A DNA stretch of 1,983 nt, taken from assembly GCF_003334765.1 (NCBI RefSeq), contig NZ_QOWT01000075.1. One strand, written 5' to 3'. A program made the translations under genes and the position numbers. Origin of the DNA: Escherichia coli. Lineage in GTDB: Bacteria > Pseudomonadota > Gammaproteobacteria > Enterobacterales > Enterobacteriaceae. Below, in pieces: positions 1-1,983 of this stretch (positions within the stretch are counted from its first letter, which is position 1; every line of letters begins with the position of its first letter). The notes under the pieces were generated by a model that made no database searches, was not told the origin of the DNA, and was given only the letters and a program-made list of their open reading frames with translations.

Positions 1-225
1 GCTCTGTATCACTGTATTGTCTTCCGGCAACTGATGAGGGCTGGCAGAAGTCGCCGGTGTTTCGGTAGCGTCACGTTCATTCACCACGCGGAGTGAATAA
101 CCGTTTTCAGCGACTTTGTTAATCAGTTCAGCGAGCTCAATACCATCGACGTCAACGACAATGCGCCCCATGTTCAGCGCCTGCGCATTAATGCTGTCGG
201 CTTCCAGCGTCAGGGCCAGTTTCAT
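1..225 (-). CDS. yeeW: YeeW-like protein, 5' portion only (75 codons; continues beyond window start)
   Basis: Manual minus-strand translation from ATG at 225..223 gives MKLALTLEADSINAQALNMGRIVVDVDGIELAELINKVAENGYSLRVVNERDATETPATSASPHQLPEDNTVIQS with no stop up to position 1. N-terminus matches my recollection of E. coli YeeW. The ATG overlaps the toxin stop as ATGA (222..225). Possible SD GGGGG about 9 nt upstream. Not in the ORF track, presumably because it is truncated by the window edge. Confidence 0.7.
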   Translation of the reverse strand, partial: MKLALTLEADSINAQALNMGRIVVDVDGIELAELINKVAENGYSLRVVNERDATETPATSASPHQLPEDNTVIQS

Positions 226-599
226 TGTTTCGCCCCCGGATGTTTACCCAGGGTAATGTTATTTACCGTTCTGTAGTTGTCGCGTGTCATCAGGCCGGTT
301 GCCCGGCGTGCCCGGAGAATATCAATGCTGTTGATTAACTGCGACGGGGCTCCTGCGCTGAATCCCGGCTGGTCGGTACGTACCAGCGCGTATTTTTCAA
401 CGAGAAAGTTCACCGCGTCACACAGTGAAATCCCTGCCTCAATATGCTGCTCAATCACACGTTCATCAGCGAACGGTGTGTCATTCAGCGTGAGGCCATA
501 GTGCTGGTCCAGCAGTCGGGTGAGCAGTGTCTGCCAGATGGTGATGGGAGACGGGCAGCCCGATGCCTCCCGTACGTGAGTGTCGGGTAATGTATTCAT
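222..599 (-). CDS. cbtA: Type IV toxin, CbtA/YeeV/YkfI/YpjF family (inhibitor of FtsZ and MreB polymerisation)
   Basis: ORF-track protein from the internal Met: MNTLPDTHVREASGCPSPITIWQTLLTRLLDQHYGLTLNDTPFADERVIEQHIEAGISLCDAVNFLVEKYALVRTDQPGFSAGAPSQLINSIDILRARRATGLMTRDNYRTVNNITLGKHPGAKQ (125 aa), close to recalled E. coli CbtA/YkfI over most of its length. Start chosen at ATG 599..597, which sits after the antitoxin stop with a weak SD (AGAGAA); the track's 160-aa version begins at a GTG at 704 inside the antitoxin gene. Stop TGA at 222..224. Confidence 0.88.
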   Translation of the reverse strand: MNTLPDTHVREASGCPSPITIWQTLLTRLLDQHYGLTLNDTPFADERVIEQHIEAGISLCDAVNFLVEKYALVRTDQPGFSAGAPSQLINSIDILRARRATGLMTRDNYRTVNNITLGKHPGAKQ

Positions 600-645
600 C
601 TTAAGTTCTCTGTAACAGGTGGTTATAAAGGGGAGATATCCGGTG

Positions 646-1023
646 TTATACGGTGGTTGCGGGCGCTGCCGGTGTCGGATAAACAGCCAGATAAACGTAA
701 CCACAGGAGCCGAGGGTGTCGGCTTCGCAGGTCAGCCCTTTCGCATACAGTGTCACGGTATGCTGATGGCGGGGATTCAGTTCACCACTGGTGAGCATGA
801 GCTCCAGTTGTTTCATCAGCAGCGGAAAGGCCTGGTCCAGGTGGTATGCATCTGCATCGCTGAACCGGCCTCTGATACCGGCGCGGTCGGCAAGGTAATG
901 CAACCGGTTACCCTTCTGCACCAGACGTGCCCCGAAACAGGGCGTCACGGTGCAGGGCAGTCCCCACCAGAGGCGGTCGTGATTGTCGTCGGGAGGCGTT
1001 GTCCCGGGGAGTGTGTCTGACAC
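646..1023 (-). CDS. cbeA: Type IV antitoxin, CbeA/YeeU/YfjZ/YafW family
   Basis: 125-aa translation MSDTLPGTTPPDDNHDRLWWGLPCTVTPCFGARLVQKGNRLHYLADRAGIRGRFSDADAYHLDQAFPLLMKQLELMLTSGELNPRHQHTVTLYAKGLTCEADTLGSCGYVYLAVYPTPAAPATTV matches recalled YeeU/CbeA closely. Start codon is GTG (plus 1021..1023 is cac), preceded by GAGGA at 1031..1035. Stop TAA at 646..648. Lies directly upstream of the toxin, as expected for this pair. Confidence 0.88.
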   Translation of the reverse strand: MSDTLPGTTPPDDNHDRLWWGLPCTVTPCFGARLVQKGNRLHYLADRAGIRGRFSDADAYHLDQAFPLLMKQLELMLTSGELNPRHQHTVTLYAKGLTCEADTLGSCGYVYLAVYPTPAAPATTV

Positions 1024-1102: not shown

Positions 1103-1324
1103 TCAGTTCAGGGTGACGCTCATCAGCCGGACATACGGACCAAAACTGTCCTTACGGCGTTCTGCAAACACAGCCAGTACACCGGGAATATCCTGCACTT
1201 CACGGCCGGTATATGTATCCGTGCTACCGTGCCAGCGGTATTTACCGGTACAGAACGGAAAAAGACGGGATGCAGGATGCTGACGGTGAATACGCATGGC
1301 TTCACCACGGGTGATGATTTTCAT
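1103..1324 (-). CDS. yeeT: DUF987-family small protein (YeeT/YpjJ/YkfH-like), function unknown
   Basis: 73-aa translation MKIITRGEAMRIHRQHPASRLFPFCTGKYRWHGSTDTYTGREVQDIPGVLAVFAERRKDSFGPYVRLMSVTLN matches recalled E. coli YeeT. ATG at 1324..1322 with a canonical AGGAGG SD at 1334..1339 (9-nt spacer). Stop TGA at 1103..1105. Conserved position between the RadC-like gene and the antitoxin. Confidence 0.85.
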   Translation of the reverse strand: MKIITRGEAMRIHRQHPASRLFPFCTGKYRWHGSTDTYTGREVQDIPGVLAVFAERRKDSFGPYVRLMSVTLN

Positions 1325-1333
1325 GAGAATAGT

Positions 1334-1339
1334 CCTCCT
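1334..1339 (-). promoter_or_regulatory. Shine-Dalgarno AGGAGG for yeeT
   Basis: Plus 1334..1339 is cctcct, i.e. AGGAGG on the minus strand, 9 nt upstream of the yeeT ATG. Confidence 0.75.
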
Positions 1340-1396
1340 GAATGTGAAAGTAAGAAACAGCTGAGAAAGAGAAACTGAAGTGATATGAAGGTGATT

Positions 1397-1408
1397 GTGA
1401 CGGTGACG
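1397..1408. repeat. Tandem hexamer GTGACG x2 (minus strand CGTCAC CGTCAC) just downstream of the RadC-like stop
   Basis: Plus 1397..1408 is gtgacggtgacg. On the minus strand TCAC recurs four times within about 30 nt (CGTCACCGTCACAATCACCTTCATATCAC). Confidence 0.5.
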
Positions 1409-1410
1409 GG

Positions 1411-1887
1411 TTAAAGCAGACCGTGTTCCGCAAAGGAGAAAACCTGGCTGCCACCGACTATCAGATGGTCCGGTACCCGGATATCAACCAGGGCCAGTGC
1501 CTGTACCAGACGCTCAGTGATAAGGCGGTCTGCCTTGCTGGGGGGGACTTCACCGGACGGGTGATTGTGCGCCAGCACCACGGCAGCGGCATTGTGGTAC
1601 AGGGCGCGTTTAATCACTTCCCGGGGATGGACTTCCGTACGGTTGATGGTGCCGGTGAAGAGGGTTTCACCGGCAATCAGCTGATTCTGGTTGTTCAGAT
1701 ACAGCACCCGGAACTCTTCACGCTCCAGTCCCGCCATGTTCAGAATCAGCCATTCCCGTGCCGCATGCGTGGAGGTGAAGGCCACGCCGGGTTCATGAAG
1801 ATGGCGGTCCAGGGTTTTCAGGGCCCGCTGAATGAGGCTGCGCTCGCCGGGTGTCATCTCTCCGGGCAGAAAGGAAAGTTGTTGCAT
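1411..1887 (-). CDS. yeeS: RadC-like JAB/JAMM-domain protein (YeeS/YfjY/YkfG family; historically mislabelled DNA repair protein RadC)
   Basis: Translation MQQLSFLPGEMTPGERSLIQRALKTLDRHLHEPGVAFTSTHAAREWLILNMAGLEREEFRVLYLNNQNQLIAGETLFTGTINRTEVHPREVIKRALYHNAAAVVLAHNHPSGEVPPSKADRLITERLVQALALVDIRVPDHLIVGGSQVFSFAEHGLL (158 aa) contains the JAMM signature H-x-H-x7-S-x2-D (HNHPSGEVPPSKAD, encoded at 1528..1569). Start set at ATG 1887..1885, which has GGAGAG 9 nt upstream; the track's longer ORF starts at ATG 1902..1900, which has no SD and abuts the upstream stop. Stop TAA at 1411..1413. Confidence 0.88.
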   Translation of the reverse strand: MQQLSFLPGEMTPGERSLIQRALKTLDRHLHEPGVAFTSTHAAREWLILNMAGLEREEFRVLYLNNQNQLIAGETLFTGTINRTEVHPREVIKRALYHNAAAVVLAHNHPSGEVPPSKADRLITERLVQALALVDIRVPDHLIVGGSQVFSFAEHGLL

Positions 1888-1902: not shown

Positions 1903-1983
1903 TCAATCGATGATGCGCATAATGGCGCTGCATTCCGGATGCTGCAGGGCGTAATCCCGCAGCCGGTAATAATGGACCGTCAT
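1903..1983 (-). CDS. 3' end of upstream gene (26 codons plus stop); possibly a KlcA/ArdB-family antirestriction protein (YfjX/YafX-like) by synteny
   Basis: Minus-strand frame reads ...MTVHYYRLRDYALQHPECSAIMRIID then TGA at 1905..1903, with no internal stop back to the window edge. In CP4-57 and CP4-6 type cassettes the gene immediately upstream of the RadC-like gene is an antirestriction protein, but in CP4-44 it is yeeR, so the product is uncertain. Confidence is for a real coding 3' end, not for the product. Confidence 0.5.
   Translation of the reverse strand: MTVHYYRLRDYALQHPECSAIMRIID

Follow-up and report, generated by a model that had tools for sequence, protein, structure and literature searches.

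Introduction

The closest described relatives of the locus reported here are gene blocks of Escherichia coli K-12. One of them, the paralogous block yfjX-yfjY-ypjJ-yfjZ-ypjF, has been treated as a single operon repressed by MqsA; its RadC-like product, LfgB (YfjY), reportedly cleaves the antitoxin MqsA as a JAB protease, and no phenotype is given for ypjJ (PMC10846083). When the five-gene blocks of CP4-6 and CP4-57 were cloned, their toxicity was equal to that of toxin and antitoxin alone; according to the authors, none of the three genes upstream, YkfH and YpjJ among them, neutralises the YkfI or YpjF toxin, and neither toxin nor antitoxin autoregulates the operon (PMC5371832). Here we report the analysis of a related stretch of E. 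coli DNA of 1,983 bp (contig NZ_QOWT01000075.1 of assembly GCF_003334765.1; the whole stretch is hereafter called the window), and in particular of its YeeT-like gene, which encodes a small protein of the DUF987 family and lies between a RadC-like gene and the antitoxin gene cbeA.

The original prediction, made from the letters of the window alone, held that this gene has the strongest ribosome-binding site of the window and that its position suggests a functional partnership with one of its neighbours, no function being established. The last point agrees with the literature, as searches on DUF987, yeeT, ykfH and Drulisvirus early genes gave no functional study of a DUF987 protein. Operon status, non-toxicity and the absence of a role in toxin neutralisation are taken from published work throughout. 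Since relatives of the protein are encoded in lytic phages and other mobile elements that do not have the neighbours found in E. coli, DUF987 probably functions in 'entry/establishment' as a self-contained protein, independently of the toxin-antitoxin pair beside it. More specifically, we propose, with a probability of roughly 0.4, that DUF987 is an autonomous, abundantly made binder that belongs to the establishment and anti-restriction gene arrays of mobile elements.

Results

The open reading frame (ORF) in question has an ATG start and is a real, intact YeeT/DUF987 gene. The features on which the analysis centres are the following.

1103..1324, minus strand: coding sequence (CDS) of the DUF987 (YeeT-like) protein, 73 aa, stop codon counted (ORF, Pfam, annotation, AlphaFold2, dN/dS)
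1334..1339, minus strand: Shine-Dalgarno (SD) sequence AGGAGG, with a 9-nt spacer to the ATG at 1324 (sole AGGAGG in the window; duplex energy)
1325..1410, minus strand: intergenic spacer between radC and the DUF987 gene, 86 nt, which carries the SD (sequence, gap distribution)

The identification as a 73-aa YeeT-like DUF987 ORF is borne out by the ORF listing of the window, by an end-to-end match to the Pfam model DUF987/PF06174 (residues 1-65 against model positions 1-65 of 65, E = 3e-39) and by 93% identity to K-12 YeeT; phrog_14887 is also matched (E = 1.5e-36). All motifs of the family are present (MKI..K.EA, GKYxWxG, AVxxERRxDxxGPY and LM[CS]), as are the residues A9, Y29, G40, A51, R57, D59, G62 and Y64, which are at least 90% conserved in an alignment of 41 family members of 34-71% identity. 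A search of PDB sequences gave chance-level matches only (E of at least 0.28). E. coli 042 and many other strains carry a genomic island to which the window is 100% identical over its whole length, and the identical copy of the ORF in E. coli 042 is annotated as 'DUF987 domain-containing protein' (WP_000692350.1). By sequence identity, the window gene is already known, as it matches exactly a gene that has been annotated and whose family is known.

The evidence for self-containment comes from the distant relatives. A DUF987 profile search of 1.84 billion representative proteins returned 232 clusters at 50% identity, many of them full-length and only 34-63% identical to the window protein, and genomic context was taken for 13 distant lineages (two of the contigs being too short to judge). 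In about 69 genomes of lytic Klebsiella phages (Drulisvirus), to which most contigs returned by the IMG/VR scans also belong, the DUF987 gene is found some 3 kb in from the left end, surrounded by small genes and upstream of the primase gene; no island gene (RadC, CbeA, CbtA or antirestriction homologue) is present in these genomes. Another phage contig from IMG/VR carries HNH endonuclease, metallophosphoesterase, DUF987 and dUTPase genes, and two phage-like contigs have dCMP deaminase, DUF987 and YuA_Gp49 in one case and a helicase, a family-A DNA polymerase and then DUF987 in the other.

The same holds for plasmids and other elements, where the company of DUF987 is varied. An orphan C5 methyltransferase gene directly follows it on a Vibrio fluvialis plasmid (L087); a marine element (L120) carries HipBA, an orphan C5 methyltransferase directly beside DUF987, and a PAPS-reductase-like gene; and a further element (L105) has an integrase, DUF987 and, about 2 kb downstream, a C5 methylase. 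In an abundant metagenomic element (L092), DUF987 is followed by one gene and then by a 565-aa methyltransferase-like and DUF4942 protein (7912-9609) with a DNA-methyltransferase-like N-terminal part (phrog_799, E = 7e-7), and the element L098 carries DUF987, DUF2201, DUF4942 and an integrase, the 568-aa DUF4942 protein (9463-11169) being encoded about 2 kb downstream of DUF987. Lineage L104 has a tandem-domain DUF987 gene followed by Mrr-like, RadC, HipBA and C5-methylase genes, and in lineage L107 (about 36% identical) the order is RadC, DUF987, ArdC, an unannotated gene, KlcA-like, RadC and MazEF. Orphan DNA methyltransferase or DUF4942 genes stand beside DUF987 in 6 of the 13 lineages. DUF4942 was seen near DUF987 in three unrelated contexts, namely L092, L098 and the end of the E. 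coli island (280 aa, L001:10876-11718), and this linkage could be more general than that to RadC or CbeA.

Searches with hidden Markov models built from the canonical neighbours found CbeA, CbtA and DUF932 in none of the 13 distant lineages and RadC in two only (adjacent in L107, nearby in L104). YeeU-family antitoxins, for their part, are encoded on 27 Aeromonas plasmids with neither DUF987 nor RadC beside them, and a Plesiomonas plasmid carries antirestriction, CbtA and RadC genes without DUF987. Since DUF987 is found without its canonical partners and the partners without DUF987, the block genes are, judged by gene content, separable cassettes that mobile elements combine differently. The original proposal that synteny implies a partnership with RadC or CbeA is not upheld, as DUF987 is common outside this context (13 lineages, the Drulisvirus genomes among them). 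In Aeromonas salmonicida pAsa5 (NC_009350), a YeeU-family antitoxin gene, an unannotated downstream gene and an antirestriction gene lie beside traM/traI; the antitoxin gene is in the plasmid leading region, and DUF987 and RadC are absent there.

AlphaFold2 (AF2), run with the 41-sequence alignment, gave a model of the DUF987 protein with a predicted local distance difference test score (pLDDT) of 97.2 and a predicted template modelling score (pTM) of 0.84. The predicted topology consists of a strand (2-4), a helix (6-15), a strand (20-23), a long loop with GKYxWxG and a hairpin (49-59/62-71) that has ERRxDxxGPY at its tip; the most conserved residues (Y29, R57, D59, G62 and Y64) are in the loop and at the hairpin tip. 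The model has no significant structural match to any PDB fold, and DUF987 is predicted to be a compact single-domain alpha/beta protein with an orphan fold. No recognisable DNA- or RNA-binding motif was found in it. The window protein has a pI of 10.3 and a net charge of +6, and the family as a whole is basic (median pI 9.4; 39 of 41 members above 7.7). A DNA mimic of the Ocr/ArdA type was considered and rejected, since such proteins have a strongly acidic surface and DUF987 is basic. One protein of L104 (P0141, 159 aa, L104:7001-7480) contains two DUF987 domains, and this natural tandem arrangement hints, at the sequence level, at a DUF987 dimer; two distant members (P0189 and P0206) have a Lys/Glu-rich C-terminal extension of about 75 aa, which is possibly a coiled coil.

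Across species, mean pairwise identity is 85% for DUF987, 81% for DUF932 and 66-74% for the antirestriction protein, RadC, CbeA and CbtA, in loci that were picked by DUF987 similarity, which may inflate the apparent conservation of DUF987. The ratio of nonsynonymous to synonymous substitution rates (dN/dS) is 0.067 for DUF987 and 0.13-0.20 for RadC, CbeA and CbtA at similar dS. By these sequence measures DUF987 is the most constrained gene of the block across species. Close copies were found in 4783 of 5426 complete E. coli genomes (88%), at 12,726 places, with a median of 2 and a maximum of 14 per genome.

The hexamer AGGAGG occurs once in the window, counting either strand, at 1339..1334 on the minus strand, just outside 1103-1324, and is separated from the ATG by the 9-nt spacer ACTATTCTC. 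The predicted energy of the duplex with the 3' end of 16S rRNA is -10.3 kcal/mol for DUF987, -6.4 for radC (start 1887), -5.9 for cbeA and -2.9 for cbtA; the site is the strongest of the window, as had been predicted, for these four starts (the start of the DUF5983 pseudogene was left unscored). The perfect AGGAGG was likewise confirmed, and only the description of its spacing as 'optimal' was slightly generous: a 9-nt SD spacer is functional in E. coli, yet is long within the usual range. A single AGGAGG in 1983 bp does not exceed chance expectation (0.68 expected; at least one in 100 of 200 shuffles), and it is the placement before a conserved start, not mere presence, that carries the meaning.

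The exact hexamer is lineage-specific. It is present in 6 of 78 loci from other Enterobacterales species, K-12 yeeT has CAGAGGT, and the full 86-nt intergenic variant occurs in about 814 of the 5426 complete genomes only. Over the 78 loci, with neighbour starts assigned heuristically, mean SD energies were -8.1 kcal/mol for DUF987, -5.0 for RadC, -6.2 for CbeA and -2.9 for CbtA, and the DUF987 SD was the strongest in 17 of the 21 loci in which all four starts could be placed. Judged from these sequences, a strong SD is a conserved tendency of DUF987 genes, though the hexamer varies; that of the window gene is an ordinary feature, with nothing new that is specific to the window. In the other genera radC and DUF987 are a median of 13 nt apart and overlap in 17 of the 78 loci, and the DUF987-cbeA gap has a median of 23 nt; the spacers of the window lineage are 86 nt (1325-1410) and 79 nt (1024-1102). 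The SD of the window gene is free-standing, whereas in most other genera it is embedded in the end of radC, and the free-standing AGGAGG looks like a replacement for translational coupling. An Rfam scan of the window at E <= 1 gave no match, and RNA structure in the 86-nt spacer was not significant (weak local hairpin only, z = 0.65); sequestration of the SD by RNA structure was rejected on this value.

Charge, conservation and expression signal would also suit a small nucleic-acid-binding protein that regulates transcription or translation of the element's own array and has no host target. The conserved positive charge, the high conservation and the strong SD were counted for this explanation. 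On the other side stand the lack of a nucleic-acid-binding motif and of a significant structural match, and the lack of an Rfam match or a significant RNA structure that could be a conserved cis element; moreover, a cis target common to the lineages is unlikely, given that their surrounding genes are wholly different. We regard a regulator of the own array as quite improbable.

Closer relatives are arranged uniformly. The 80 best loci, taken from GTDB contigs with one genome per species and 66-92% identical to the window protein, span Enterobacteriaceae, Erwiniaceae, Yersiniaceae, Hafniaceae, Pectobacteriaceae, Morganellaceae and Budviciaceae, and in every one of them in which the flank suffices the order is RadC, DUF987 and CbeA (then CbtA). 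In the close lineage DUF932 and an antirestriction gene mostly stand ahead of this block, and among the copies examined the same block was found on IncHI-type plasmids and in Klebsiella islands. The 'invariant position' ascribed to the gene therefore stands for the close Enterobacterales lineage, in the 80 loci and on the plasmids, and does not extend to the whole family, as the 13 distant lineages differ. The IncHI array of pNDM-CIT (L116:35732-36223) has an orphan DNA methyltransferase gene in addition to the canonical block, and also encodes DUF3085, DUF957, a PAPS-reductase-family protein and a RES-Xre pair.

The constant order bears on a second explanation, the main rival of the establishment reading, in which DUF987 serves the RadC-like JAB metalloprotease beside it as an accessory subunit or regulator. 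DUF987 could, for example, supply in trans the binding of nucleic acid or substrate that the short RadC proteins of mobile elements lack, or inhibit the protease until needed. RadC precedes DUF987 in all 80 close loci and on the plasmids, and the short or overlapping gap between the two genes fits translational coupling. RadC is also directly upstream of DUF987 in L107, a lineage without CbeA and CbtA, and within 1.3 kb of it in L104. Residues 36-158 of the window RadC correspond to positions 96-218 of the 218-position profile TIGR00608 only, its C-terminal JAB part, so the N-terminal domain of chromosomal RadC is absent from the window protein, and the basic nature of DUF987 would suit an accessory role. 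Two precedents were counted as well: the paralogous RadC LfgB is a reported protease (PMC10846083), and DUF3085, which is encoded beside a plasmid RadC, has been proposed as a RadC partner from a predicted complex (PMC12826799).

Against such a role, 11 of the 13 distant lineages, including the lytic phage genomes, are without RadC within several kb, and RadC-family genes are far more widespread than DUF987 with its 232 clusters at 50% identity. An AF2 fold of RadC and DUF987 as one chain with a (GGGGS)6 linker had a pTM of 0.53 and a mean pLDDT of 75.8, and its five models (60-76) were inconsistent and without confident docking; the alignment was shallow (25 paired sequences), there was no predicted aligned error and the chains were artificially linked. 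By our estimate, independent domains of these sizes would give a pTM of about 0.45-0.5 and confidently docked ones about 0.7, and this modelled fusion, which is weak evidence, gives no support for a complex. Pairwise-distance correlations were 0.51 for DUF987-RadC, 0.47 for DUF987-CbeA, 0.28 for CbeA-CbtA and 0.19 for DUF987-CbtA, the lowest value in the block, and that for RadC does not stand out above those of other neighbours. As partner evidence these correlations were set aside as uninformative, because correlation decays with distance along the operon; the known pair CbeA-CbtA reaches only 0.28. A RadC-linked role of DUF987 is viable, and we consider it unlikely.

Several 'long' DUF987 proteins (P0121, P0123-P0125 and P0127-P0129) are chimeras joined at one point, ...GPSDS(R/W)WQ(P/S)GFLL..., and their N-terminal parts come from different proteins, including the island Ag43, DUF932, antirestriction and a membrane protein. 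The junction is the 3' end of radC in an alternative frame (window about 1411-1454, minus strand), continued through the spacer into DUF987, and a breakpoint common to many different partners points either to a hot spot of deletion or recombination or to chimeric assembly at a conserved repeat. RadC-DUF987 fusions were accordingly rejected as Rosetta-stone evidence, being chimeras or read-throughs at this one breakpoint and mostly single-member (at most two-member) clusters.

DUF987 might instead be a third component of the CbtA/CbeA type IV toxin-antitoxin system, as a co-antitoxin, a chaperone or an omega-like transcriptional regulator. It lies directly upstream of cbeA in every close locus (median gap 23 nt), and its small size and basic charge would fit. 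Co-expression of the five genes nevertheless left toxicity unchanged relative to toxin and antitoxin (PMC5371832), by which a role in toxin neutralisation is already largely refuted. CbeA and CbtA accompany DUF987 in 0 of the 13 distant lineages, YeeU-family antitoxins dispense with it on the 27 Aeromonas plasmids, the predicted fold is neither ribbon-helix-helix nor helix-turn-helix, and the DUF987-CbtA distance correlation is the block minimum (0.19). We hold a third toxin-antitoxin component to be very improbable.

The same low standing is given to a prophage-type antirepressor (Rem/FsoA/GfoA-like) that would inactivate a repressor of the Xre/DicA type. YeeT, YpjJ and YkfH were short-listed as weak FsoA-like candidates by relaxed BLASTP; when induced, they did not derepress dicBp (dicBp-lacZ) and were inactive as DicA antirepressors, and induction of YeeT and YpjJ caused neither filamentation nor growth inhibition (bioRxiv 10.1101/2023.04.14.536235). 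The hairpin motif AVxVE...Y..MC has a short local resemblance to Rem. Profile-profile comparison with hhalign against Rem and the Rem family alignment gave a probability of 0.7-1.0% only, on which an antirepressor identity was rejected, and occurrence in strictly lytic phages and beside methyltransferases would be unexpected for an antirepressor. This explanation is hardly credible.

The other features of the window are the following.

1903..1983, minus strand: 3' end (last 27 codons) of the antirestriction (KlcA/ArdB-type) gene, first cistron of the block (annotation, E. coli 042)
1411..1887, minus strand: RadC-like JAB/MPN gene (YeeS-like, 158 aa), upstream cistron (TIGR00608, E = 3.6e-43; annotation)
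646..1023, minus strand: cbeA, YeeU-family type IV antitoxin gene with a GTG start, next cistron downstream of DUF987 (annotation, ORF)
222..599, minus strand: cbtA-family toxin gene (annotation, ORF)
28..225, minus strand: truncated DUF5983 (YeeW-like) pseudogene (annotated as incomplete, L001 12028-12225)

All genes are on the minus strand and are transcribed in the order antirestriction, RadC-like, DUF987, cbeA, cbtA and DUF5983 pseudogene, and this co-directional block, which lies in a genomic island, has DUF987 as its third cistron. The antirestriction CDS is cut by the window edge, the full CDS at the E. coli 042 locus (L001 13903-14376) corresponding to window positions 1903-2376, and the start of the DUF5983 pseudogene overlaps the cbtA stop by 4 nt; intact versions of DUF5983 (163 aa) were found on Klebsiella plasmids. 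According to the RefSeq annotation of E. coli 042, the island continues upstream of the window with DUF932, DUF905, IrmA, Ag43 and a GTPase, while the genes on its downstream side are DUF957, DUF4942 and an integrase remnant. Across the whole window, the minus strand showed neither a sigma-70-like promoter nor an intrinsic-terminator-like site; two promoter-like matches on the plus strand (1017-1075) do not exceed chance. Antisense to cbeA there is a 133-aa ORF (619-1020, plus strand); it and several further antisense ORFs (60-74 aa) are probably spurious, a result of GC-rich codon usage.

Discussion

In the reading that we favour, DUF987 would be a cassette of the gene arrays that are carried by islands, IncHI-type plasmids, elements resembling integrative and conjugative elements (ICE-like) and the early regions of lytic phages. 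Such arrays comprise KlcA/ArdB, ArdC, orphan methyltransferases, RadC-like JAB proteins and addiction modules, with the early-injected region of podophages as a counterpart. DUF987 would most likely act non-enzymatically and in high copy, on a target that is conserved and negatively charged, either the nucleic acid that the element brings in or a host factor of DNA processing that is itself conserved, and its binding would help the element to establish itself. A binder of this kind needs to outnumber the neighbouring enzyme and toxin, and the strong SD would provide for such a molar excess. Early expression, mode of binding and target are parts of this proposal that we infer. The small size, the lack of an enzyme-like fold, the positive charge, the constraint and the strong SD fit an abundant stoichiometric binder. 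An establishment-array context is indicated by the KlcA-type gene in the block, by the ArdC, KlcA-like and MazEF genes around DUF987 in L107, by the methyltransferase neighbours (L087, L120, L104, L105, L092, L098 and pNDM-CIT) and by the early position in Drulisvirus.

A more specific version, that DUF987 is a new anti-defence or establishment family of orphan fold, common to lytic Klebsiella phages (early region), conjugative plasmids, ICE-like elements and enterobacterial islands, is possible, if somewhat doubtful. Stoichiometric binding would then neutralise a conserved DNA-targeting function of the host, or shield the incoming DNA.

Several points weigh against an autonomous establishment binder. 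The argument is one of guilt by association combined with physico-chemical inference, and the 'early' expression in Drulisvirus is deduced solely from where the gene lies. The very strong sequence conservation, itself possibly inflated by the choice of loci, is atypical of an arms race with variable immune proteins, and the E. coli copies are in largely cryptic islands that may have lost transfer. PADLOC gave no defence-model match for DUF987 or the seven neighbouring proteins (eight block proteins), and NCBIfam has no family for DUF987, nor for CbeA or CbtA, among the window proteins. The links to RadC also count here, namely the constant order in the close loci and on plasmids, the short or overlapping gap and the adjacency in L107.

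DUF987 is among the most widespread uncharacterised genes of E. coli, with copies in 88% of complete genomes, and no gene is under stronger constraint in its block, which tends to be discussed for the toxin-antitoxin pair only. Its presence in phage early regions and beside orphan methyltransferases shifts the question from whether it is a third toxin-antitoxin component to whether it is an establishment or anti-defence factor. If the anti-defence reading is true, the copies that E. coli genomes carry (up to 14 each) would be what is left of that role. This family-level picture is a reasonable lead for experiments and not a discovery specific to the window.

Comparison with known systems

The omega protein of omega-epsilon-zeta and PaaR2 resemble DUF987 in size (about 70 aa) and in gene position, directly ahead of an antitoxin-toxin pair within the same operon. 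They differ in that DUF987 is not a ribbon-helix-helix or helix-turn-helix protein by AF2, in that most of its family is without a toxin-antitoxin pair, and in that co-expression left toxicity unchanged. The antirepressors Rem (PF27490), FsoA and GfoA are small and prophage-borne like DUF987, and are set apart by the hhalign probability of 1% and by the lack of DicA derepression. DUF3085 is, as DUF987, a small protein encoded beside a RadC-like gene of mobile elements; the families are unrelated, and unlike DUF3085, DUF987 gave no confident docking in the fused-chain AF2 model, and most of its distant members are without RadC. The anti-restriction genes of the KlcA/ArdB, ArdC and orphan-methyltransferase types share neighbourhoods and co-directional arrays with DUF987, and presumably also timing and purpose. 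None of the three types has sequence or fold similarity to DUF987, which is basic, and they are linked to it here by gene neighbourhood.

The nearest relatives are K-12 YeeT (CP4-44) and its paralogues YpjJ (CP4-57) and YkfH (CP4-6), which belong to the same Pfam family and share the place of the window gene between a RadC-like gene and a YeeU-family antitoxin gene; YeeT is also 73 aa long. K-12 yeeT differs from the window gene in its translation signal, with CAGAGGT in a 62-nt spacer in place of the perfect AGGAGG in the 86-nt spacer. The Drulisvirus protein (KpV41 gp06, YP_009188748) is a full-length homologue (47% identity, E = 7e-22) with the same PHROG and the same motifs, and differs in being encoded in strictly lytic 44-kb podophages among small early genes.

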